From contig CANFQO010000002.1 in assembly GCA_947449135.1 (NCBI GenBank), positions 86,045 to 150,044 of the forward strand: 64,000 nucleotides of DNA, read 5' to 3'. The notes under the pieces are model-generated. The model worked only from the letters and a program-made list of their open reading frames with translations, made no database searches and was not told where the DNA came from. Source of the DNA: Planctomycetaceae bacterium. Lineage in GTDB: Bacteria > Planctomycetota > Planctomycetia > Pirellulales > UBA1268. Within the stretch, counting starts at the first letter, position 1, and every line of letters begins with the position of its first letter. This document shows positions 14,841-26,241 of this stretch, in pieces. The translations under genes and the position numbers were made by a program.

Positions 14841-15198
14841 GAATCGGCTTTCGTGTCAGGGGATGGCAGGGAAGACAGGCGGCGGGGATGTCGGGCGGGG
14901 CCGGGGTGGCGCTGGCAAGTCGCTGGAGTGGCGGGCATGGAGCGATCCACGCAATCCGGAGGATTATGGTACCGCGGCTGGGAGAAGCAGGCTGGGCAGG
15001 CGACGTGAAGATGGAACTTGCCTGCATTGCCAAGGACACTCTTGCCCGGATCGCCCACGCTACGTTGTTTGCGAGGGCGGTGTGGAGCAGATCACGAAGG
15101 GGCCAGTCTGCGACTAATGTGGGCCGGGACGGTGCCCGCACGTCGGTAACCCCCTTTGTAGCCACGACTTGCGGAGCCTCTTGGCCGGTGGCAACGCC

Positions 15199-15228
15199 TT
15201 GACCCGTCGGCGCGGGCACTCCTATAGT
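15199..15228 (+). promoter_or_regulatory. Near-consensus sigma-70-type promoter upstream of the lptD-like gene
   Basis: TTGACC (15199-15204), an 18-nt spacer, then TATAGT (15223-15228); each hexamer matches the consensus at 5 of 6 positions. Such a match stands out in this GC-rich sequence. Confidence 0.45.
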
Positions 15229-15333
15229 CCCGCGCTTTTTCCGAACGGGCCCGTTTTCCAACCCAAGGACGCTTTCGCACGCGTGTTTTCTCTGTTTGAT
15301 CACGCCACCGCTGCGCCCCCGCGACATCGGGTT

Positions 15334-18300
15334 TTGAACCCATCGCGCCGAGGTTCTGCGCGCACGCGACGCGCTCCGCAACTGTGTTCACACGCGCGGG
15401 TCGTGGTGCTGGCGTTGGTCATGATCACGGTGCACGGAGTCACGCGGCACGCGGCGGCTCAGTCGCCAGCGACCGCTCTGCCACTGCGTGAGACAGCGAC
15501 GGCGGGCGTGCTCGCGGCCTTACCGGCACGCGGTTTGGCAGCGGCCATCGCGGAGGCGGGCAGCATTGAAGTTCCATCGGCGGATCCGCAGGAGAACGTC
15601 ACGATCAATGCCACGCAGGCCTCGCGGTGGACGGAGGGCTCCTATGACGTGTGGCACCTGACCGGTGGTGTGCGGATCAGGCAGGGAGCAACAGAAGCCA
15701 CCGCTCACGAAGCGGTGGTGTGGATCGAGCAGGAAACGGGGCCATCGGTCGACCGTGAAGCGAGAGACGAAGGCGACGAAGAACAGCCGCAATCAGCGCC
15801 GATCCGCAGCTTGCTCGTGAGGATGGCGGGAGCCGTCGCCGTACAGTCTGCGTCATCCGGTGCCGATGCCGGCACAACGACCGTCCGCGGTCCGCGCTGG
15901 ACGGGACGCTTCTGGATGCAGCGGGAGCCGACGCTCGATTTTGCCAGCGTCGTGCCGGCCGCTGGCACGCCCCCGATCTACGACGCGCCGGCTGATCGTG
16001 TTGTGCCGGTCGCGTACAACGCCGACACGGAGAACGATGCTGCCGCAGAGGAGCCGATCCAACGGGCGCAGTTCAGTGAATTCGGTGCGGCTCCGGTACC
16101 GACAGTAAACGCTGCCACCACCGCCCGTCGGCTGCGAGCCTTCCCGAGGTCGAGCGTGCCACTCAACATCCGCTGGTTCCCCAGCCCGACGGGGAGCGAG
16201 TGGGTGGCGGTGATCAACTCTGGCGTGAACCTCGTCGTGGATGGCGTTGACCCGGCCGGCCCGCTCGACATCTCCGCCGACCGGCTCGTGATCTGGACCC
16301 GCGGGCAATCCCAGCCCGATCTCGAGGGCAACGCCGCACAGGCCGGCGACGTGCCGCTGGAACTCTACATGGAGGGCAACGTTGTCTTCCGGCAGGGGCA
16401 GCGTGTTGTCGAGGCGATGAGCATGTTCTACGACGTGCCGAGGTCCAGCGGCGTGATCACCGGCGCCACGGTGCTCACACCAGTCGACAACTATTCTGGA
16501 GTGGTGCGGCTGCGGGCGGACGTGCTGCGGCAGGTCGACCGCAGCCGATTCGTTGCCCAGAAAACCGGCCTCACCTCCAGCCGCCTTGGGGTGCCAAGCT
16601 GGGAGTTTCGCTCCCGTGAGCTCGAGTTTACCGATGAGCAGGTGCCATTGGCCGGTCCCGGCGGTCAGCCGGCAATAGACCCGGTGACGGGTGAGCCGGC
16701 AGTCGAGCATCAACAGTTCATCACCAGTCGCGGCAACACCTTCACGCTTGGCGGCGTGCCGGTGCTCTGGTGGCCGGTACTGGCGACCAATGCGAAAAAG
16801 CCCACCTTCTATATCAATAACGCACAGATCAAGAACGACCGCATCTTCGGTACGCAGTTGCTCACCAGTTGGGACGCCTTTCAGGTCTTTGGCTGGCGGC
16901 GGCCGCCAGATGGGGTCGACTGGGATTTCGACGTCGACTACCTCAGCAAACGCGGCCCCGGCGGCGGCACGTCGCTGCTCTACAATCGGTCCGACTTCCT
17001 CGGCTACGGCGGGCCCACCAGCGGCGACCTCGACGCGTGGTTCATCGGTGACGTCGGTCAGGACAACCTCGGCCTCAACCGTCGCGACTTCACGTATCCC
17101 GGCTATCCCGACCGGACGTTCCGCGGCCGCTCGTTCTGGCGACACCGGCAGGATCTCGGCGGCAGCACCGACAGCTTCTTCGGGGGCTGGCAGCTCCGTG
17201 GTACGGCTGGCTGGATCAGCGACATGAACTTCCTCGAGGAATATTACGAGGCGGAGTGGGAGGAAGGCTACGAGCAGCGCACGTGGCTCGACCTACGGCG
17301 GCCGATCGAGAACCGCGAACTGCGACTGCTCACCAGCGCCCGAGTGAATCCGTTCTTCACCCAGAGCGAGTGGTGGCCGCGGCTCGACCATTACTGGCTG
17401 GGACAACCGCTCTTGCAGGATACCCTGACCTGGTACCAGCACTCCGGCGTGTCGTACGTGCGGCAGAACCTGCCACAGACGCCCACGGCAGGGCAGGGGC
17501 TCGGTATTTGGACGACGCTCCCCTATGAAAACAACGTCATCGGCGAGCGGCTGGCGACGCGGCACGAGATCGACCTGCCGTTCCAGGCGGGGGCGGTGAA
17601 GATCGTCCCCTACGCGCTTGGCGAACTGGCGCACTGGGGCCAGGACATCACGCAATCGCCAATCGATAGGGCGTATGGGCAAGTGGGTATTCGGTCGACG
17701 CTGCCGATGTGGACGTCGGACAACACAGTGGAGAGCCAGCTCTGGAACGTCCACGGCATCGCCCACAAGGTGGTGTGGGAGGCGGAGTTTTCCTATGCCA
17801 ACAGCTCGCAGAGCATCGATCAGTTCCCGCTCTATGATCAGATCGACGACGATACGATCAACCAATACCGCCGCAACATTCCCTACTGGGATTACGGCGC
17901 GATCCCCGGGCAGACGACGCCGCTGGGTACGCCCTTCGTCTTCGGTCCGAGCAACAAGTACGACCCGCGGACCTATGCCGTCCGCCGCGGCATGGGCGGC
18001 TGGGTGACCGGTCCGACGGAGATTGCCAACGATCTCAGCGTCTTCCGGCTGGGAGCCCGACAGCGCTGGCAGACGAAGCGCGGCCCGATGGGCAACCGCC
18101 GGATCATCGACTGGATCGTCTTCGACGTGGACGGCGAACTCTTTCCGACGACGAGCCAGAACTTCGGGCAGACGCTCGGCCTCTGGCAGTACGACTTCCG
18201 CTGGCACGTGGGCGACCGCACCACGCTGCTCTCCACGGCCGACGTCGACTTCTTCACCGGTGGGCAGCAGCTCTACACCGTTGGCGCGCTGCTCAACCGC

Positions 18301-18633
18301 ACGCCGCGGGGCAGCTTTTACATCGGGTTCAATGAATTCGGCGGCCCGATTCAGGCGAGCGTCCTGACCGGGTCCTATACCTATCGGATGAGTCCCAAGT
18401 GGGCGAGCTCCTTCGGCACGGCGATCAACCTGACGGGGAACAACATCGGGCAGAATTTCCAGCTCGTGCGGATCGGCGAGTCGTTCCTGATGACGTTTGG
18501 CTTTAACGTCGACTACAGCCGCAACAACGTGGGCTTCACGTTCAACCTCGAGCCACGATTCCTGTCGCGGACGCAGTTCGCCAGCCGCACCGGCCTCGAC
18601 ATCCCGATGGCGGGTGCTTACGGGCTGGAGTAA
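15334..18633 (+). CDS. LPS-assembly outer-membrane protein LptD-like (large)
   Basis: N-terminal OstA-like segments (WHLTGGVRIRQG, LELYMEGNVVFRQGQRVVEA). A central VPVLWWPVLATNAKKPTFYINNAQIKNDRIFGTQL resembles the LptD barrel entry, and the C-terminal part is long and beta-rich. The start is uncertain. The promoter at 15199-15228 excludes ATG 15169. TTG 15334 would give an Arg-rich n-region followed by VVVLALVMITV and AAA-Q. GTG 15403 and ATG 15421 are alternatives. Confidence 0.55.
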   Translation: MNPSRRGSARTRRAPQLCSHARVVVLALVMITVHGVTRHAAAQSPATALPLRETATAGVLAALPARGLAAAIAEAGSIEVPSADPQENVTINATQASRWTEGSYDVWHLTGGVRIRQGATEATAHEAVVWIEQETGPSVDREARDEGDEEQPQSAPIRSLLVRMAGAVAVQSASSGADAGTTTVRGPRWTGRFWMQREPTLDFASVVPAAGTPPIYDAPADRVVPVAYNADTENDAAAEEPIQRAQFSEFGAAPVPTVNAATTARRLRAFPRSSVPLNIRWFPSPTGSEWVAVINSGVNLVVDGVDPAGPLDISADRLVIWTRGQSQPDLEGNAAQAGDVPLELYMEGNVVFRQGQRVVEAMSMFYDVPRSSGVITGATVLTPVDNYSGVVRLRADVLRQVDRSRFVAQKTGLTSSRLGVPSWEFRSRELEFTDEQVPLAGPGGQPAIDPVTGEPAVEHQQFITSRGNTFTLGGVPVLWWPVLATNAKKPTFYINNAQIKNDRIFGTQLLTSWDAFQVFGWRRPPDGVDWDFDVDYLSKRGPGGGTSLLYNRSDFLGYGGPTSGDLDAWFIGDVGQDNLGLNRRDFTYPGYPDRTFRGRSFWRHRQDLGGSTDSFFGGWQLRGTAGWISDMNFLEEYYEAEWEEGYEQRTWLDLRRPIENRELRLLTSARVNPFFTQSEWWPRLDHYWLGQPLLQDTLTWYQHSGVSYVRQNLPQTPTAGQGLGIWTTLPYENNVIGERLATRHEIDLPFQAGAVKIVPYALGELAHWGQDITQSPIDRAYGQVGIRSTLPMWTSDNTVESQLWNVHGIAHKVVWEAEFSYANSSQSIDQFPLYDQIDDDTINQYRRNIPYWDYGAIPGQTTPLGTPFVFGPSNKYDPRTYAVRRGMGGWVTGPTEIANDLSVFRLGARQRWQTKRGPMGNRRIIDWIVFDVDGELFPTTSQNFGQTLGLWQYDFRWHVGDRTTLLSTADVDFFTGGQQLYTVGALLNRTPRGSFYIGFNEFGGPIQASVLTGSYTYRMSPKWASSFGTAINLTGNNIGQNFQLVRIGESFLMTFGFNVDYSRNNVGFTFNLEPRFLSRTQFASRTGLDIPMAGAYGLE

Positions 18634-18797: not shown

Positions 18798-20417
18798 TCA
18801 TGCGGCTTCCCGGCGAGACGCGATCCGCAGCAATGCGTGCCATGCGGCGAAGATCGCTGCCAAGAGCATGTAGGAAGCCGCGAGCGCGAGCGGACCGCGG
18901 CCGGCCGCCTCGGCGGGAAGCGGCCCAACGTCCCACGGCAGGAAGAGGCGGCCATCGGGGAAGGGGGAGTGGATCACGCCGCAGAGCGTGCAGGCCGCGG
19001 CCGCCATGCACCAGCCTGCGGCCGCCAGCAGCTTCCTGTCGACAAGCGATACCACCATGCCAGCCCAGAGCAGGCTCGTGACGATGAAGCCGGAAGCGAG
19101 GAGCCGGATCGAGAAGAGTTCACGCACCAGAGGTCCCGTCGGCACCGCCCCCGCGGCAAGCAGCTTGTCGGCCTGGATCGACACCAGCGCCGCGAGCGCT
19201 GGGACACAGGCGATCGCCACCGCCGGATAGTGCCGCTGTGGTGTGGCATGGAAACTCTGCGCGGTGATCTCCAGGCCGATGAAGACCAGGATCGGCAGGA
19301 TGGCCGGTCCGGGGATGGCTTGGTAGAGGTAGGCAAACGTGCCGGTGAGCCCGGCGATACCGATGAAGACCGCCGTGGCAAGTGTGTAGGCCGCACGTCC
19401 CCCCATCGCCTTGTAGGCGGGATGGCCGATGTAGGGAGTGGTCTGGATGACGCCGCCACAGGCCCCCGCAAGGATCGTGGCGAATCCTTCGACGGCGATG
19501 ACCTGACCGGTTTCGTATTCATCGCCGGCCGCCGCGGCACTCTCGGTACAGTCGATGCCCCCCACCACCGTGCCGAGCGCGAACGGGATCACGATCGGAA
19601 GATACTTCACGGTGTCCCGCCAGGCCTCCAGCCATTCAAGTTTGAGTGCCGACAGCCATTCCACCGGCCAGAGTGCTGCCTGGGGATCGATGGCGGCATG
19701 CGCGGCGTCGGCAGGAATCCAGCCGCTGGCCGTGCCGATGGCGTGGATCAGGCCGCCGACCAGCAGGGCGGCCAGGGCGCCGGGAATTCGCGCCGGGAAC
19801 GGGATCTGGGCCGTCAGTGCCGCCAGCACGATGCCCAGTGAGGCGAGTCCCACCAGCGGCGAGTCAAAGATTTCCAGGAGCGGCAGAAAAGTGATCAGCG
19901 CCAGAGCGATCGCCGCGAGGCTGCCAAGCAGCCCTGCGCGAGGCACGAGCCTGCGGACGGTTCCAGCGATGCAGCTACAGCAGACCTTGAACACTCCGCT
20001 GGCGACGATCGCACACATACCAATATGCCAGGCGTGGCGGGCGGCGGCCTCACGCTCCATGCCGCCGGCCAGCGACGCCGCATAGGCCGGTCCGAGCACG
20101 AAGAAAACCATCCCGAACGTGCTCGGGGTGTCGAGTCCCAGCGGCATCGCCGTGATGTCTGATCGCCCGGTCCGCCGGGCCAGGCGGAAGGCCATCCAGG
20201 TGAAGATCAGGTCACCGACCACCACCCCCACGGCCGTCCCCGGCACGAAGTGCGAGAGGGCGAACTGGATCGGATAATCGAACACGGTCGCCAGCAGGGA
20301 GACCGCCAGTACCAGGTCGGCGAGATTATCAATGGACAGGCCAAAAAAAGCATTGATGTCGCCAGAGGTCGCCCAACGGTAGGCCGCTGTCTGCCGGGAA
20401 TGTGGGCGTTGTCCCAT
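18798..20417 (-). CDS. NCS2-superfamily-like permease (xanthine/uracil/AzgA-like), substrate unknown
   Basis: Polytopic membrane protein. The segment IQTTPYIGHPAYKAMGGRAAYTLATAVFIGIAGL parallels the GTSSVTAYIESSSGVSVGGRTGLTAVVVG region of AzgA-type permeases as I remember it. ATG 20417 was chosen; ORF-track start 20507 is possible. Confidence 0.5.
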   Translation of the reverse strand: MGQRPHSRQTAAYRWATSGDINAFFGLSIDNLADLVLAVSLLATVFDYPIQFALSHFVPGTAVGVVVGDLIFTWMAFRLARRTGRSDITAMPLGLDTPSTFGMVFFVLGPAYAASLAGGMEREAAARHAWHIGMCAIVASGVFKVCCSCIAGTVRRLVPRAGLLGSLAAIALALITFLPLLEIFDSPLVGLASLGIVLAALTAQIPFPARIPGALAALLVGGLIHAIGTASGWIPADAAHAAIDPQAALWPVEWLSALKLEWLEAWRDTVKYLPIVIPFALGTVVGGIDCTESAAAAGDEYETGQVIAVEGFATILAGACGGVIQTTPYIGHPAYKAMGGRAAYTLATAVFIGIAGLTGTFAYLYQAIPGPAILPILVFIGLEITAQSFHATPQRHYPAVAIACVPALAALVSIQADKLLAAGAVPTGPLVRELFSIRLLASGFIVTSLLWAGMVVSLVDRKLLAAAGWCMAAAACTLCGVIHSPFPDGRLFLPWDVGPLPAEAAGRGPLALAASYMLLAAIFAAWHALLRIASRREAA

Positions 20418-20685
20418 GGGGCCTTGTCCGTGTTGGAGGGGTGCTGTGCCACAGATGCTGCGAGAATCGTGGTGCCGGAATGTCGAAAGATGGGCCAAAA
20501 AAGTCAAATCCGCCCGCGGCAGACCGATACCACGAAAGCCCGAGAGGGCGAGGCAGGATTTCCCCGCACCCCCGAGATGGTGGCTATACTCGGGCGTGGG
20601 CGGTCTGCCTCCCAGGGGGTCGCCGAGCGATCTTACGACGATCTTTTTTTCCGCGAACCCTTCCCGCTGTGCCCGCGTAGGACAG

Positions 20686-21369
20686 ATGGATTTGCACGAG
20701 TCCCACCCCAGTTCAGGGCACGACGACCGGTCCGGCGGCGGTTCGGTTGTCGAGCCGTTGACGCAACCTTTGGTTCCTGGAGCGGGGCTGACCGATGAGG
20801 AACTGATTCGGCGTGTTTGTGCAGGAGACGATGCGGCCGCATTCGAGTCGCTCGTTCACCGGTACGAACACGAATTGTTTAGCTACCTCCGTCGCTACCT
20901 CGGCAGCGCGGAGATGGCGGAGGATGTGTTTCAGGCCACGTTTCTGCAGGTTCACCTGAAGCGGGAGAATTTCGAGGATGGCCGGAGGTTTCGCCCCTGG
21001 CTCTACACGATCGCCACCAACCAAGCCATCGATGCCCAACGTCGTAATCGTCGCCACCGGATGGTGAGCCTCGATCAACGCACCGGCGGGGATGGCGACG
21101 TCGGTTCGCTCGTGGAGATGCTGTCGGGACGCGATTCGACGGCGGGCCAAAAGCTGGAGGAAGAGGAGGCGAAAAACTGGGTGCGAGCGGCGGTCGAGGA
21201 ACTCCCCGACCCACTGAAGAGCGCCCTGATTCTCGTCTACAACCAGGGTATGAAGTATCGCGAGGCGGCGGATGCGCTGGGGATTCCGGTGGGAACCGTG
21301 AAAAGCCGGTTGCACGCCGCCCTGCTCAAACTGAACGAGTCATGGCAGGCAAGCGGCCATGAGCGTTGA
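20686..21369 (+). CDS. ECF-type RNA polymerase sigma-70 factor
   Basis: Region 2 (FSYLRRYLGSAEMAEDVFQATFLQV ... RPWLYTIATNQAIDAQRR) and region 4 (LKSALILVYNQGMKYREAADALGIPVGTVKSRLHAALLKL). ATG 20686. ORF-track start 20416 runs into the divergent permease start. Confidence 0.85.
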   Translation: MDLHESHPSSGHDDRSGGGSVVEPLTQPLVPGAGLTDEELIRRVCAGDDAAAFESLVHRYEHELFSYLRRYLGSAEMAEDVFQATFLQVHLKRENFEDGRRFRPWLYTIATNQAIDAQRRNRRHRMVSLDQRTGGDGDVGSLVEMLSGRDSTAGQKLEEEEAKNWVRAAVEELPDPLKSALILVYNQGMKYREAADALGIPVGTVKSRLHAALLKLNESWQASGHER

Positions 21370-21461
21370 ACGAGGACAAGACCGACAGACGATGAACGAT
21401 GAGTGCTTTCAACGAACCTGACGCCCCACCGATGGTTCGTCGCCAATCACGACTGATGTGA

Positions 21462-22454
21462 GTGTTTTCTATGCGAGAAGATCTTGTCGGCCACCTCCTG
21501 GGGGCTCTCGAGCCGTCCGAATCGAAGGCAATTGAACTGGCCCTTGCTGATCCGGATCGTGGACCGCAACTGAGTCGCGATCTGGAGAAGTTGCGGTTGG
21601 CGCTCGAGCCGTTGGCAGGGGACCGTGATGTACTGCCGGCGCCATCCGGCCTGGCTGGCCGGACGATGCGGTTCATCGTGGAGCAGGAGGCTGCTGTCCG
21701 GATTCAAGACAGCCGGCCGCTGCCGATGCCGCGGGGGATGTCCGCTGAAGACGCACTGCCGCGAGGCCGTGGCGCCCGCGGCTGGATCGATCGCGTCATC
21801 ATCGCCGCTTCGGCGCTCGCAGCGTGTGTGCTCGTGGCGCCGCTGCTGCTCGACTCGATCTCGCAGGCCCGCGCCCGGCGGGCGGAACGGAATCTCTTGA
21901 AAACGTCGGGGGCGCTCCAAGGCTATGCCGATGCCCACCGCGTCTTCCCCACCCCGCCTAGCACCGGGCCATTATCTCGGGCCGGCCTGTATGCCCCCAC
22001 GCTTGTTTCCGAGCAGCGGCTCGTGGCTGACGATGGCACGCTTGTCTGTCCCGACACGCCGCTCTCCCGGAGCGGCACGTTCCGTGTGCCCACGCTTGAG
22101 GAACTCGAGCGGGCGGTTGGCACTCCGGAGTTCGAGGAGATGGTGCGGACGATGGGGGGCGACTATGGCTATACGCTCGGCCACCGTGACGCTTCCGGCG
22201 AGTTGCAGCCAAATCGCGATCTCAGGCGGACCCATCACCCGCTCATGGCCGACGCCCCGAACGACGGTGGCGAGCGAAGCAGCAACCATCCCGACGGGCT
22301 TCACCACGTGCTCTTCGAAGACGGCCATATCAAGCGATTCGGGCCGTCGGATCTCCACACCGGAGACCACCTCTTCAAGAATCACGACGGCCAAGTCGCC
22401 GCCGGCATCGACGAGGATGACGCGGTCATCGGCGACTCGGAAGACCAGCCGTAG
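21462..22454 (+). CDS. Putative anti-sigma factor with a pseudopilin-like (DUF1559 / H-X9-DG-like) outer domain
   Basis: It lies 92 nt downstream of the ECF sigma gene. It has a short N-terminal cytoplasmic region (LVGHLLGALEPSESKAIELALADP), one TM (VIIAASALAACVLVAPLLL), then SQARARRAERNLLKTSGALQGYADAHRVFP and a C-terminal SNHPDGLHHVLFEDGHIKRF, which resemble the DUF1559 N- and C-terminal motifs. Confidence 0.6.
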   Translation: MFSMREDLVGHLLGALEPSESKAIELALADPDRGPQLSRDLEKLRLALEPLAGDRDVLPAPSGLAGRTMRFIVEQEAAVRIQDSRPLPMPRGMSAEDALPRGRGARGWIDRVIIAASALAACVLVAPLLLDSISQARARRAERNLLKTSGALQGYADAHRVFPTPPSTGPLSRAGLYAPTLVSEQRLVADDGTLVCPDTPLSRSGTFRVPTLEELERAVGTPEFEEMVRTMGGDYGYTLGHRDASGELQPNRDLRRTHHPLMADAPNDGGERSSNHPDGLHHVLFEDGHIKRFGPSDLHTGDHLFKNHDGQVAAGIDEDDAVIGDSEDQP

Positions 22455-22463
22455 CAGTGCGGC

Positions 22464-24560
22464 TTACTTGGCCGCCATTGATTGCTTTGCAGCGGCGGCG
22501 ATCGCCTCGGCGGTGATGCCGAAGTGCTTGTAGAGGGCCGGCGCCGGGCCCGACGCACCGAAGCTCGTCATGCCCACGAAGCGGCCACGCGGGCCGATCC
22601 AGCGATCCCACCCAAAGCCGCAGGCCGCCTCGCACGCGACTCGCGCGGTCACTGCCTGAGGCAGCACGCTTTCCCGATACGCCTCGTCCTGCTCCTCGAA
22701 GAGATCCCAGCTCGGCATGCTCACGACCCTGGCGTGAACGCCCTCCGCGGCGAGTTTCTCGGCGGCTTCAAGGCAGAGAGGCACCTCGCTGCCGGTGCCG
22801 ATCAGGATGCATTGGGGCTTACCGCCGGCGGCGTCCTTCAGCACGTACGCGCCCCTGGCCACACCGGCGGCGGAGCCGTAATTGGCCCGGTCGAGTGTGG
22901 GCAGGTTCTGCCTGGAGAGCACGATCACAGCGGGGCGATCGGCACGTGTGATGACCACGCGATAGGTCTCGGCCACTTCGTTGGCATCGGCTGGTCGAAA
23001 CACGCTCAGCCCCGGCACGGCGCGGGCACTGGCCAGTTGTTCGATCGGCTGGTGTGTCGGGCCGTCTTCGCCCAGACCGATCGAGTCGTGCGTGAGCACG
23101 TAGATCACGCCGAGGTTGCCGATCGCGGAGAGCCGCAGCGCCGGCTTCAGATAGTCGAGGAACACAAAGAACGTGGCGCAGTAAGGCCGCAGGCCGGAGA
23201 GCGCCATGCCATTGCAGGCCGACGCCATGCCATGTTCGCGGATGCCGAAGTGAAGGTTGCGGCCCGAGAAGGAGCCCGGGCCGAAGTCGCCGGCTCCCGG
23301 CACAAGCGTCATCGTCGAGGGCGCCAGGTCGGCAGAGCCACCGAGGAACCACGGCACGGCACCGCTCAGAGCCTGGATCACCTTGCCGCTCGAGACGCGG
23401 CTGGCGAGCCCCTTGGCGTCGGCGGGGAAGCAGGGGATGGCCGACTCCCAGCCGGCAGGAAGCTTGCCCGAGAGGAAGCCAGCCAGTTCCGCGGCCACGC
23501 CGGCGTGCGACTTGGCCTGTTCGGCAACGGTCTGCCGCCAGGCCTCGTGGGCCTTGTGACCGCGAGTTCCCAGCGTCTTGGCAAACTGCTCCGGCACCTC
23601 CGGCGGCACCAGGAACTGCGCATCGACCGGCCAGCCGTAAGACGCTTTGGCCCCCTTGATCTCATCTGCGCCCAAGGGAGCACCATGCGACTCGTGCGAG
23701 CCCGCCTTCTTCGGGGCTCCATAGCCGATCACGCTCTTCACGATGACGAGTGTCGGCTTCTGCTGCTCGTTTTTGAAGGCCTGCAACGCCTGCTTCAGGC
23801 ATTCAGTGTCGTTGGCGTCGGCCACGTGCTCAACGCGCCAGCCCATGCCCTCGAACTTCTTCGCCACGTTCTCGCTGAAGGCGAGATGGGTTTCGCCCTC
23901 GATCGTGATCGAGTTGTCGTCGTAGATCCAGCAGAGATTGGCGAGGCCGAGATGGCCAGCGATGGAAGCGGCCTCGCAGGCCACGCCCTCCATCAGGTCT
24001 CCGTCGCTGCAGAGCACGTAGGTGTCGTAGTCGAAGACGACGTGGCCGGGCGTGTTGTAGTGGGCGGCGAGCCACCGCGATGCCATCGCCATGCCGACGG
24101 AGTTGCCGCAGCCCTGTCCGAGCGGTCCGGTGGTCGTTTCGATGCCAGACGTCATGTGATGCTCGGGATGGCCCGCGCAGACACTGTCGAGTTGGCGAAA
24201 CTTCTTGATCGACTCGAGCGACACGGCCGGCTCGTTGGCGGAGCCACTCCCTGATGCATCATGAGCGGTCCCGCGACGAATGCCCGCCAGATGAATCAGC
24301 GAATAGAGCAGCATCGACGCATGGCCACAGGAGAGCACGAACCGGTCCCGGTTTGGCCAGGCAGGATCGGCCGGGTCGTACCGCAGAAAGTCCTTCCACA
24401 CGGCGTAGGCCACTGGCGCCAGTGCCATCGGCGTGCCAGGATGACCGCTCTTGGCGGCCTCGACCGCGTCCATCGAGAGGGTGCGAATCGTGTCGATCGC
24501 GAGGCGATCGATGTCGGTGGCATGGGGCGGACGGGCCGCTGGGGCTGAAGGTGCAGCCAT
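22464..24560 (-). CDS. tkt: Transketolase
   Basis: SGHPGTPMALAP, GHASMLLYSLIHL, GDGDLMEG and a C-terminal transketolase domain. 698 aa from ATG 24560; ORF-track start 24686 is rejected. Confidence 0.9.
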   Translation of the reverse strand: MAAPSAPAARPPHATDIDRLAIDTIRTLSMDAVEAAKSGHPGTPMALAPVAYAVWKDFLRYDPADPAWPNRDRFVLSCGHASMLLYSLIHLAGIRRGTAHDASGSGSANEPAVSLESIKKFRQLDSVCAGHPEHHMTSGIETTTGPLGQGCGNSVGMAMASRWLAAHYNTPGHVVFDYDTYVLCSDGDLMEGVACEAASIAGHLGLANLCWIYDDNSITIEGETHLAFSENVAKKFEGMGWRVEHVADANDTECLKQALQAFKNEQQKPTLVIVKSVIGYGAPKKAGSHESHGAPLGADEIKGAKASYGWPVDAQFLVPPEVPEQFAKTLGTRGHKAHEAWRQTVAEQAKSHAGVAAELAGFLSGKLPAGWESAIPCFPADAKGLASRVSSGKVIQALSGAVPWFLGGSADLAPSTMTLVPGAGDFGPGSFSGRNLHFGIREHGMASACNGMALSGLRPYCATFFVFLDYLKPALRLSAIGNLGVIYVLTHDSIGLGEDGPTHQPIEQLASARAVPGLSVFRPADANEVAETYRVVITRADRPAVIVLSRQNLPTLDRANYGSAAGVARGAYVLKDAAGGKPQCILIGTGSEVPLCLEAAEKLAAEGVHARVVSMPSWDLFEEQDEAYRESVLPQAVTARVACEAACGFGWDRWIGPRGRFVGMTSFGASGPAPALYKHFGITAEAIAAAAKQSMAAK

Positions 24561-24642
24561 GGGACGATCTTCTCCAAAGAGCGAGTCGGTGGTACGTGGG
24601 AGGAAGTGTAGAAGCCGGCAGGAACCGCCGTCAACGCGTGCG

Positions 24643-26241
24643 CTACCGCGCCATGTGGAGTCGGTACTCGTCGTCCAGTTCCTCATAGCTTTTCCGGCAG
24701 AGACGGGATAGCGTGTCGGTCTCGACCGTGCCGGTATGGATGCGCACGAGGTATTCCACGAAGGCCTGGCGGTACCTTGCTCGCTGCCCGTTCATGAAGA
24801 AGTCGGCAAGACCGGCGATTTCGCTGTAGATCTGTGGCAGCCGTTCGTTGGCCTGAAAGGCCCGCCGGCCCATCGCGGTGAGCTCCGCCAGCGGCACATG
24901 GAAGCCATCCTCGACCAGCCGTTCCCTCGCCATCGGGGCGCGTCCAGCGTCGCGGCCGCCGATCGTCCAGCCCCACTCGGTCGGCACCATGCTCTCCATG
25001 TAGCAGGCAGCCGCCTCGATCGCCCAGAAGCCACACCGTTCGCCAGCGAGCGTGCTGGTGCGACGTGTCTCGGCGAAGAGTTGGTGGGTGGCCTCATGGT
25101 GTACCGTGGCCGGCTCCTGCCCCTCGCCCGCGAAGAACCAAGCGGTGTTCGTGGGTGTCCAATAGATGCCGAGCGTGCGCACGATGCTGGGCTCGAGCGG
25201 TTCGAGCGACGCGATGTAGTCCTGGCGGTCTGCCGTGAGCTTGGCGACGAACGGATCAAGGGGCTTCGGCCGTCCCCGGCCCTCGAGTCGTCGCTCCCAC
25301 TCCGCTGGCTCATATTGAAATCCCCCAAACACCTGGAGCCAAGCCGTGTGGGCCTCTTCCAAATGCATCGCCAGGTTCGCGGCCGCCTCGGTGCTGGCGG
25401 TCGTGGTGATTTGCCAGTGGTCGGAGGTGAACTTCCAGCCCTGCCTGTCGATGTCGGGGAGCTTGCTCATCGGTGAACGGGAAGGCGGTGTCCGTTCCTG
25501 CTCTTGCTTTTGGCCGCCGGCCTTCGTCCACCGGCCGTTCTCGTAGCGTTCACCTGCCTTGTAGCGTTGTTGCCGGCCGCGTGGCAGCCAACCAAACTCA
25601 GGCGAATATTCCTCACCCTTGTCGAGCCGCCTCGCGGCTTCGGGCCACACCCACTGCTCCCCCCGCTTCACCCAGCCGCCTGCCTCCCGCGCACGCGTGT
25701 GGTCGGGGTCGTCGCGGAGTGCCCGGTAGAGGAGTCTGATCGCCTCGGTCGCGTCATGCTCGAGCAACGGCGGCGTGGAATCGGCGGCCCCGGTCGGGCG
25801 TCGCGACGGCGTCGCCTGCAACTGGCTCGCGGCTACCGCCAGCGCGAAGGTGCCTGCTGCCCTGTCACGACGAGCTGTCAGAAAATCATCCCAGATCGCC
25901 TGCTCGAATGGGGTGTCAATCCAATCGGGCTGCATGGTCTGAGGCGGGACTGGCGGAATCTGCAGGATGTACTGACGGTCAGCTTCTTCCGGCAGTTGCC
26001 AGTCCCGAATGATCGCGGCAAGTGCGTCGTGGCCCCCGATCTGGCAGCGGCGTAGCAGGCCGGCCACGGTGACGGCCCAATCCTTGTCGAGTTGGCTACC
26101 GGTGGCTGCTGCGGAATTCTTGGCGACGACCGACCCTGACGCGACGGCCGGTTCGGCCGCAGGCACTGCCCGCAGAGGTGCGGTCACGACCGCCACTGCC
26201 AGCAGCAGTACGACAGCGCGGCGATGTTCCGGGGAGCGCAT
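24643..26241 (-). CDS. Secreted HExxH protein (DUF1570-like putative metallopeptidase)
   Basis: Signal peptide (AVVLLLAVAVVTAPLRAVPA) and a zincin-like motif VHHEATHQLFAE. The family name is from memory of planctomycete DUF1570 proteins. Confidence 0.5.
   Translation of the reverse strand: MRSPEHRRAVVLLLAVAVVTAPLRAVPAAEPAVASGSVVAKNSAAATGSQLDKDWAVTVAGLLRRCQIGGHDALAAIIRDWQLPEEADRQYILQIPPVPPQTMQPDWIDTPFEQAIWDDFLTARRDRAAGTFALAVAASQLQATPSRRPTGAADSTPPLLEHDATEAIRLLYRALRDDPDHTRAREAGGWVKRGEQWVWPEAARRLDKGEEYSPEFGWLPRGRQQRYKAGERYENGRWTKAGGQKQEQERTPPSRSPMSKLPDIDRQGWKFTSDHWQITTTASTEAAANLAMHLEEAHTAWLQVFGGFQYEPAEWERRLEGRGRPKPLDPFVAKLTADRQDYIASLEPLEPSIVRTLGIYWTPTNTAWFFAGEGQEPATVHHEATHQLFAETRRTSTLAGERCGFWAIEAAACYMESMVPTEWGWTIGGRDAGRAPMARERLVEDGFHVPLAELTAMGRRAFQANERLPQIYSEIAGLADFFMNGQRARYRQAFVEYLVRIHTGTVETDTLSRLCRKSYEELDDEYRLHMAR

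Follow-up and report, generated by a model that had tools for sequence, protein, structure and literature searches.

Introduction

Pairs of extracytoplasmic function (ECF) sigma factors and anti-sigma factors are already known, among them the autoregulated RpoE- and SigW-type operons, SigK-RskA of Mycobacterium tuberculosis and the system of Escherichia coli RseA. Regulators of another kind, the sensor kinases of the PleC-PilA and PilS-PilA systems, read pilin pools through transmembrane (TM) helix contacts (PMC7196804). Planctomycete genomes are rich in pilin-like genes: DUF1559 is the largest paralogue family in them, with 68 members in Planctopirus limnophila, two of which are essential (PMC10632474), and Tuwongella immobilis encodes ~91 proteins that carry both N_methyl and SBP_bac_10 (PMC8567305). 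Here we describe a locus in a 64,000-nucleotide stretch of DNA from a Planctomycetaceae bacterium (GenBank assembly GCA_947449135.1, contig CANFQO010000002.1, positions 86,045 to 150,044 of the forward strand), which we call the window throughout and in which all coordinates below are counted. The locus consists of an ECF sigma factor gene and, directly downstream, the gene of a putative anti-sigma factor. What appears to be new, judging from the sequences, is an ECF sigma/anti-sigma pair whose sensor module and membrane anchor derive from a pseudopilin.

We consider it probable that the two genes form a self-contained, autoregulated module and that the anti-sigma factor is a chimera in which an RskA-like domain has replaced the leader of a DUF1559 pseudopilin. 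The module is conserved across Planctomycetia. A similar architecture had been proposed in a sequence-only reading of the window; our results support the view that the observation is real and that this earlier interpretation holds mainly at the level of the protein family.

The sigma and anti-sigma genes

The plus strand of the window (G+C ~65%) carries two co-oriented open reading frames (ORFs), 20686-21369 for the sigma factor followed by 21462-22454 as listed from a GTG codon. We place the start of the second gene at ATG 21471, which gives a protein of 327 amino acids (aa), rather than at GTG 21462, because every homologue begins MRE(D/E)L; residues of the anti-sigma factor are numbered in this 327-aa form. 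The two genes are separated by a 101-nt spacer (21370..21470, plus strand), in which no feature was identified and which in relatives is usually 7-60 nt.

The upstream gene (20686..21369, plus strand) encodes a protein of 227 aa, a predicted ECF (group 4) sigma factor. It matched Pfam Sigma70_r2 (1.3e-18, residues 56-123) and Sigma70_r4_2 (1.6e-14, residues 164-216), with no r3 match in Pfam and nothing structural beyond r2 and r4_2, so that it has the ECF composition of sigma2 plus sigma4 without sigma1.1 or sigma3. Its score against TIGR02937 (sigma70-ECF) was 103.5 bits, where the cutoff is 42.9, no NCBIfam equivalog or subfamily model was matched at its own cutoff, and the solved structures nearest to it are of SigW, RpoE and AlgU-type sigmas (E ~1e-20). 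By these matches the gene product is an ordinary ECF sigma factor, as the sequence-only reading had called it.

That reading had further suggested that the downstream protein begins with an anti-sigma-type region, and several comparisons support this. In the window protein, the N-terminal 137 residues matched the NCBIfam models NF052375 ‘anti-sigma factor’ (E 4e-6) and NF010501 (1.7e-4), in both cases below the curated cutoff. The family-level tests here and below were made on 127 diverse full-length members scanned individually; at E<=0.01, NF010501 was matched by all 127 (best 5.9e-13) and NF052375 by 126 (best 8.4e-17), while RskA_N was matched by 9 and zf-HC2 by 4. When a 70-column profile of the N-terminus was compared with the PDB, RskA (4nqw_B, E 0.025) and RslA (3hug_B, E 0.042) were both among the top four matches. 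The family consensus in this region reads MRExLLGYLLGALDxxExxxVExxLxxDPxLRxEL, and neither it nor the window protein contains the HxxxCxxC motif of zinc-binding anti-sigma domains (ZAS).

Structure prediction gave a concordant picture. With an alignment of 25 sequences (66-98% identity) AlphaFold2 (AF2) returned a predicted local distance difference test score (pLDDT) of 45, and with an alignment of the 127 representatives a mean of 91.6. In the latter model the anti-sigma domain (residues 1-81, 21471..21713, plus strand) is formed by helices 2-10, 15-26, 31-49 and 61-81, with block-mean pLDDT of 81-97, and thus shows the three-helix bundle plus fourth helix of a class I anti-sigma domain (ASDI). 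The domain is followed by a cytoplasmic linker (residues 82-100, 21714..21770, plus strand; pLDDT 53-56), the length of which is highly variable across family alignments. Together, the model matches, the four-helix AF2 model and the genomic pairing described below support the assignment of the N-terminus as a putative non-zinc class I anti-sigma domain of RskA-like type.

Pilin-type helix

Beyond the linker the AF2 model contains a single 56-residue helix (residues 101-156, 21771..21938, plus strand), which corresponds to the alpha1 helix of pilins. The TM segment (~108-127) lies inside it, and the part after the TM segment (alpha1-C) is predicted to be periplasmic. The two peptides quoted in the sequence-only reading as resembling the N-terminus and the C-terminus of DUF1559 proteins, VIIAASALAACVLVAPLLLDSISQARARRAERNLLKTSGALQGYADAHRVFP and SNHPDGLHHVLFEDGHIKRF, are both present verbatim. 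For the window protein alone the first resemblance is weak: BLASTP against a canonical DUF1559 protein gave E 0.006 over the helix. It is at the family level that the claim of a DUF1559-like TM helix holds, a typical member reaching E 5e-7 over 52 ungapped residues, with RGWALADLVVV set against RGFTLVELLVV, and 84 of the 127 members matching PF07596 at E<=0.01 (best 3.4e-9); GspG was matched by one.

Profile-profile comparison against an alignment of 35 canonical DUF1559 sequences, each carrying N_methyl and PF07596, was more sensitive. With hhalign the family aligned to DUF1559 over 65 columns at 98.6% (E 8.8e-16). Removal of the TM segment from both profiles left 97.0% (E 1.2e-10; reversed control E 0.047), and the alpha1-C helix alone gave 98.5% (E 1.6e-15; reversed control E 0.058); because the TM-removed and reversed-profile controls hold, the match is not an artefact of TM-helix composition. 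The C-terminal block alone gave 82.7% (E 9.4e-6; reversed control E 0.22), the head without the helix 32.5% (E 4.7e-4; reversed control E 0.036), and the window clade by itself 75.6% (E 2.4e-5). A greedier alignment was collinear through three anchors, C-x-NNL-[KR]-x-x-G-x-AL-x-x-Y...FP, CP[SD] and S-x-H-x-G-x-NVL-x-x-DG-x-V-x-F, with one residue inserted in the third, terminal anchor, and the two Cys conserved in each family align with one another. Through the same helix, the family profile matched Geobacter PilA (7tgg, 7.8e-4), PilE1 (8pfb, 0.013) and GspG (5wda, 0.27) in the PDB.

The residues retained in this helix, and those lost from it, are informative. Counting from Phe1 of pilins, position 5 is acidic in all 127 members (Asp in 123, Glu in 4), where all 35 canonical proteins have Glu, and position 22 is Pro in 125 of the 127 and in 35 of 35 canonical proteins, with identical spacing between the two positions; in the window protein these residues are Asp107 (21789-21791, plus strand) and Pro124 (21840-21842, plus strand). 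The residues around the prepilin cleavage site have changed. At position -1 the family has Arg in 57 members, Gly in 19, Ser in 15 and Ala in 6, as against Gly in 27 and Ala in 8 of the 35 canonical proteins, and at position +1 it has Trp in 85 and Phe in 13, as against Phe in all 35; the window protein has Ala at -1, and its clade has Trp at +3. None of the 127 members matched the N_methyl model (PF07963), and in place of the short basic leader with Gly or Ala at -1 and Phe at +1 that defines a prepilin, a domain of ~100 aa precedes the helix. From the residue statistics at position -1 we judge the cleavage site to be lost: the helix is evidently pilin-derived, with a prepilin-peptidase site that appears to have been lost in evolution. 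The pattern agrees with the earlier prediction that a putative sigma-binding region has replaced the prepilin leader, with Asp at position 5 and Pro22 kept and the cleavage Gly gone.

Periplasmic head

The remainder of the protein is a predicted periplasmic alpha/beta head of ~170 aa (residues 157-327, 21939..22451, plus strand). Along the whole chain the model shows four helices, the linker, the long helix, short helices, four strands (232-235, 257-261, 278-282 and 287-290) and a family-specific tail, with the helix and the alpha/beta head arranged in pilin order and pLDDT in the head mostly >90. A Foldseek search of the PDB with the full-length model found no significant match. Measured after Pro22, the head comprises ~200-215 aa in the family and ~307 aa in canonical DUF1559 proteins. 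It shows many invariant His, Asp and Gly, and the last 226 residues are free of indels among the 25 aligned members (66-98% identity).

Near the C-terminus lies an H-X10-DG block (His273...Asp284-Gly285, NHPDGLHHVLFEDG, 22287..22325, plus strand), which forms the last hairpin of the model and aligns to the H-X9-DG block of DUF1559 with one extra residue. The sequence-only reading had noted both the likeness and the spacing of 10, and both were confirmed; 10 is in fact the family norm, found in 76 of 89 scorable members as well as in the window protein. Accordingly spaced for 10 rather than 9, the window protein falls outside the H-X9-DG model TIGR04294, which 11 of the 127 members match. The block is followed by a family-specific tail (residues ~298-327, 22362-22451, plus strand), D-x-[IL]-F-x-N-[DH]-x-G-x-V-A-A-G-x-[HD]-x-x-D-A-V-I-G-x-S-x-x-x-P, which is nearly invariant in the family and absent from canonical DUF1559 proteins. 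The head of the window clade is rich in His (5.9%, noted at residues 255-305; the other family members have 3.3% and canonical DUF1559 proteins 2.3%), a composition that hints at a possible metal site.

Conservation of the pair and its promoter

A scan of species-representative genomes, built on 27 members sharing VLFEDGH and listing no genomes of the window's own clade (HHVLFEDGH), retained 80 loci, all in Planctomycetia and one per genome; the taxa include Pirellulales, Pirellulaceae, Thermoguttaceae, Planctomycetaceae, Rhodopirellula, Pirellula and Ca. Anammoximicrobium. Complete genomes with the module include OY970273.1, OY969698.1 and OY970289.1 (loci L012, L059 and L060). At 85 of 86 loci a sigma orthologue (E 1e-39 to 1e-121) adjoins the anti-sigma gene upstream on the same strand, usually across a gap of 7-60 nt, and in the sole exception only 61 bp of upstream sequence is present. 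The sequence-only reading had singled out this pairing for a survey, and the pair proves conserved; the position, co-oriented and next to an ECF sigma gene, is that of a class I anti-sigma factor. The sigma factor is far more conserved than its partner, with a median identity of 60% (79 loci) as compared with 35% for the anti-sigma.

The sigma gene is itself preceded by an ECF-type promoter motif that is conserved upstream of orthologous sigma genes. In the window, a -35 element GAACC (20655..20659, plus strand) is followed after a 16-nt spacer by a -10 element CGTA (20676..20679, plus strand), with the ATG 6 nt later. In the sequences preceding the sigma genes, a search for dyads found exact GAACC-N16-CGTA in 35 loci (shuffled maximum 5), and 76 of 80 loci carry the relaxed form GAAC[CT]-N14-17-CGT[AC] immediately before the orthologous sigma gene, compared with 3 of 80 for the reverse complement and a mean of 1.7 for shuffles. 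Of the spacers across loci, 31 measure 15 nt and 46 measure 16 nt. With a GAAC-type -35 and a CGT-type -10 before its own gene, the sigma factor is predicted to be autoregulated, and the only promoter target that can be named from the motif is the sigma/anti-sigma operon itself. Between CGTA and the first in-frame ATG, 68 of 77 loci have 3-9 nt (mode 6-7 nt), and because the -10 element lies so close to the start codon the sigma transcripts are predicted to be leaderless or near-leaderless.

The family is large and sparsely annotated. A word-indexed search found 556 relatives, and the 120 relatives among the matches listed are 66-98% identical and unnamed or ‘hypothetical’, the named sources being metagenome-assembled genomes of Planctomycetia. 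When a profile restricted to the TM and periplasmic parts was run against 1.84 billion cluster representatives (50% identity), the family was found to comprise at least 1,108 clusters at E<=1e-3, of which 699 also passed E<=1e-10. Almost every full-length top match is 310-370 aa long, with the domain C-terminal after 85-150 residues, and this constant layout indicates that the architecture is conserved. In a cluster look-up of ten members those with a name were called ‘hypothetical protein’, two other members are called ‘prepilin-type processing-associated H-X9-DG protein’ by JGI, and several carry a precomputed PF07596 match; P0264, P0234 and others bear one or the other of these automatic labels in JGI data. 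None of the members looked up is labeled ‘anti-sigma factor’. In the literature searched, no paper relevantly linked an anti-sigma factor with DUF1559, SBP_bac_10, H-X9-DG, pseudopilin or pilin-like proteins; the description of an ECF group may mention the partner.

Neighboring genes

One neighbor recurs. A protein of ~280 aa is encoded on the same strand 3' of the anti-sigma gene in 30 of ~82 loci (for example L025:11151-12227, L035:5400-6221 and L009:12720-13625, with ~27 other loci); it matches nothing in Pfam or NCBIfam and by tblastn is absent from the window. It looks to be the only recurrent neighbor that is real, and possibly belongs to the module as a third component. Most of the other recurrent clusters were rejected as antisense shadow ORFs typical of high-GC DNA. 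In an upstream divergent cluster (42 loci) the representative has methyltransferase domains, and no protease gene recurring in the neighborhood was seen in the conserved-neighbor analysis.

In the window the pair is flanked upstream by a divergent gene for a membrane protein with many hydrophobic segments (18798-20507, minus strand; an ORF of 569 aa, 535-536 aa in relatives), which keeps synteny with the module in close relatives and matches no Pfam or NCBIfam model. Directly downstream lies a convergent transketolase gene (22464-24686, minus strand), identified from Pfam matches in syntenic relatives; its synteny is confined to close relatives, and it is probably unrelated to the module. Further flanking ORFs at 15169-18633 (plus strand, 1154 aa) and 24643-26241 (minus strand, 532 aa) have no Pfam match at E<=1e-3.

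Discussion

If the two genes work as their parts suggest, the N-terminal domain would hold the sigma factor at the inner membrane until a signal perceived by the pilin-like module, either in the membrane or in the periplasm, releases it. Release could come about by proteolysis or by a conformational change, and the freed sigma factor would then amplify its own operon and switch on a regulon elsewhere in the genome.

A number of results weigh against the proposal of a pilin-derived anti-sigma module. The match of the window protein to NF052375 is sub-threshold, at 27 bits where the curated cutoff is 100. The DUF1559 match that the sequence-only reading had expected over residues ~110-330 literally fails, the window protein having no Pfam match at E<=10; it is not filed under PF07596 because the threshold of that model (gathering threshold 23.3 bits) is not reached, and the domain is called DUF1559-derived because of the profile-profile evidence. 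Even among ten members examined, the PF07596 matches scored 13-27 bits and were limited to positions 1-39 of the 268 in the profile. When the helix is left out, the head aligns only by those 19 columns that make up the match of the C-terminal block, and for its ~120-residue middle hhalign detects no similarity to DUF1559. In the window clade the alpha1-C Cys (138-equivalent), which the other members of the family and DUF1559 proteins conserve, is replaced by Glu (RRAERN vs ARxxxCQNN), and since the CP Cys (residue 193) is kept, a putative disulfide would be lost. No prepilin-type gene was found in the window, and 1.2 Mb of flanking sequence held only 4 canonical DUF1559 genes, with no positional link to pseudopilin or secretion genes. 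The promoter motif, finally, occurs at chance frequency both elsewhere in the window (8 found, 8.3 expected) and in the 1.2 Mb flanks (29 found, 20-40 expected), and no regulon member was seen there.

What the anti-sigma factor senses is less certain than its architecture. It is possible, though short of probable, that the system performs classical envelope or ligand sensing, with the head as a periplasmic sensor, the helix as an inherited anchor and release by regulated intramembrane proteolysis (first a site-1 cut, in the head or the linker, then one by an RseP-type site-2 protease) as in RseA and RsiW. The layout of anti-sigma domain, single TM and extracytoplasmic domain, together with an RpoE/SigW-like sigma factor, fits systems controlled in this way; the extreme conservation of the head (226 aa free of indels, many invariant His, Asp and Gly residues, and the tail) is as expected for a binding site; the His-rich head of the window clade (5.9% vs 3.3%) hints at metal or ligand chemistry; and the genes are not linked by position to any for pilins or secretion. 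However, this explanation leaves the acidic position 5 (127 of 127) and Pro22 (125 of 127) at pilin spacing unexplained, as a mere anchor would be expected to drift, and a protease gene recurring nearby was not found. Because the buried Asp5 and Pro22 are conserved in a helix that is neither processed nor polymerized, it is suggested that the helix retains pilin-type contacts; as it can no longer be cleaved, methylated or polymerized, the two residues are not conserved for those roles. The view that we favor, tentatively and at less than even odds, is hence that the anti-sigma factor keeps watch on the pool of mature DUF1559 pseudopilins in the inner membrane, or on the platform that assembles them, and does not respond to a small-molecule ligand. 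The specific form of molecular mimicry, in which the unprocessed pilin helix would dock on mature DUF1559 pseudopilins or the platform so that pool size or assembly state is read as sigma activity, we regard as conceivable and, on balance, unlikely. Classical sensing and pilin-pool sensing are not exclusive, since proteolytic release could follow either signal.

Other explanations differ over what the protein is or how it is switched. Since the pilin-like junction aligns to the pilin G|FTLxE cleavage site, a prepilin peptidase (PilD/GspO) might cut at the cytoplasmic face of the membrane and free the anti-sigma domain with its sigma for degradation, which would constitute a new kind of site-1 cleavage. 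A minority of members do have Gly (19 of 127) or Ala (6 of 127) at -1, and the window protein too has Ala there, but the predominance of Arg (57) and Ser (15) there, where the 35 canonical proteins have only Gly or Ala, the mostly Trp +1 position and the 0 of 127 N_methyl matches make the site look lost rather than retained, and we consider this trigger very unlikely. The notion that the protein is no anti-sigma factor at all and is a structural pilin or pseudopilin with an unusually long leader that happens to lie beside a sigma gene would account for the pilin-type helix, the H-X-DG end and the two JGI H-X9-DG names; it is highly improbable in view of the confident four-helix domain formed by the ~100-aa N-terminus, the anti-sigma models that match 127 of 127 members, the loss of the cleavage site and the adjacency to an ECF sigma gene at 85 of 86 loci across orders. 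Equally improbable is a chance or convergent likeness to DUF1559 that arose from TM hydrophobicity and short motifs, with an unrelated periplasmic domain. In its favor are the lack of a Pfam match for the window protein, the confinement of similarity to ~65 N-terminal and 19 C-terminal columns, and the negative Foldseek search of the PDB, but alpha1-C without the TM segment still gives 98.5% (E 1.6e-15 vs 0.06 reversed), both families present three motifs and a conserved Cys pair in one common order, the spacing of Asp/Glu5 and Pro22 is identical, and 84 of the 127 members match PF07596 independently.

A pilin-derived anti-sigma module would matter in several ways. A DUF1559 member that occurs once per scanned genome and is hard-wired to a transcription factor would offer a regulatory entry point to the DUF1559 expansion, and the sigma regulon, together with the condition that releases the sigma, should indicate what the pilin-like domain recognizes. 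Anti-sigma factors would gain a new class of sensor module, with an anchor that is inherited from pilins and keeps the residues which pilins use for contacts with subunits or machinery. Were the mimicry mechanism true, the pair would be a pilin-sensing sigma switch, a kind not found in the literature searched, and the first regulatory circuit connected with the largest unexplained family of planctomycete paralogues. As to annotation, at least 1,108 clusters could be renamed anti-sigma, and an ECF group could be defined from the sigma factor together with its promoter. The leaderless transcript predicted for the sigma gene also bears on gene expression in planctomycetes.

Comparison with known systems

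The closest relatives of the sensor module are the DUF1559 / SBP_bac_10 (PF07596) proteins. The whole alpha1 helix, the acidic position 5, Pro22 and the C-x-NNL...FP segment are homologous, the central CP[SD] and the terminal S-x-H-x-G-x-N-V-L-x-x-DG-x-V-x-F are shared, and both families are confined to Planctomycetia. Unlike DUF1559 proteins, the present family has no prepilin leader or cleavage site and carries a ~100-aa anti-sigma domain and a linker before the helix; its head is shorter (~200 vs ~307 aa), the His-DG spacing is 10 and not 9, and there is an extra C-terminal tail. The window clade also lacks the helix Cys. Whereas canonical genes number dozens per genome (PMC8567305, PMC10632474), the family has one locus per scanned genome, beside an ECF sigma gene.

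With RskA (M. tuberculosis SigK-RskA, PDB 4NQW) and E. coli RseA the protein shares a helical anti-sigma domain (YLLGALxxxE in helix 1), a single TM, an extracytoplasmic C-terminal domain and a gene directly 3' of that of the ECF sigma. It differs from them in that the TM and outer domain appear to be pilin-derived and are not RskA_C or RseA_C, and the similarity to RskA is marginal (E 0.025). The operon resembles the autoregulated RpoE/SigW type in its sigma factor with sigma2 and sigma4 only, its GAAC/CGT promoter and its co-oriented downstream anti-sigma gene, and departs from that type in that 68 of 77 loci are predicted to give a leaderless mRNA. Should pool sensing hold, the system would also be comparable to PilS-PilA of Pseudomonas aeruginosa and PleC-PilA of Caulobacter, in which a membrane regulator reads a pilin helix (PMC7196804). 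Unlike PilS and PleC, the sensor would then join a pilin homologue to an anti-sigma domain, with no histidine kinase, and its link to pilins is one that residue conservation suggests.

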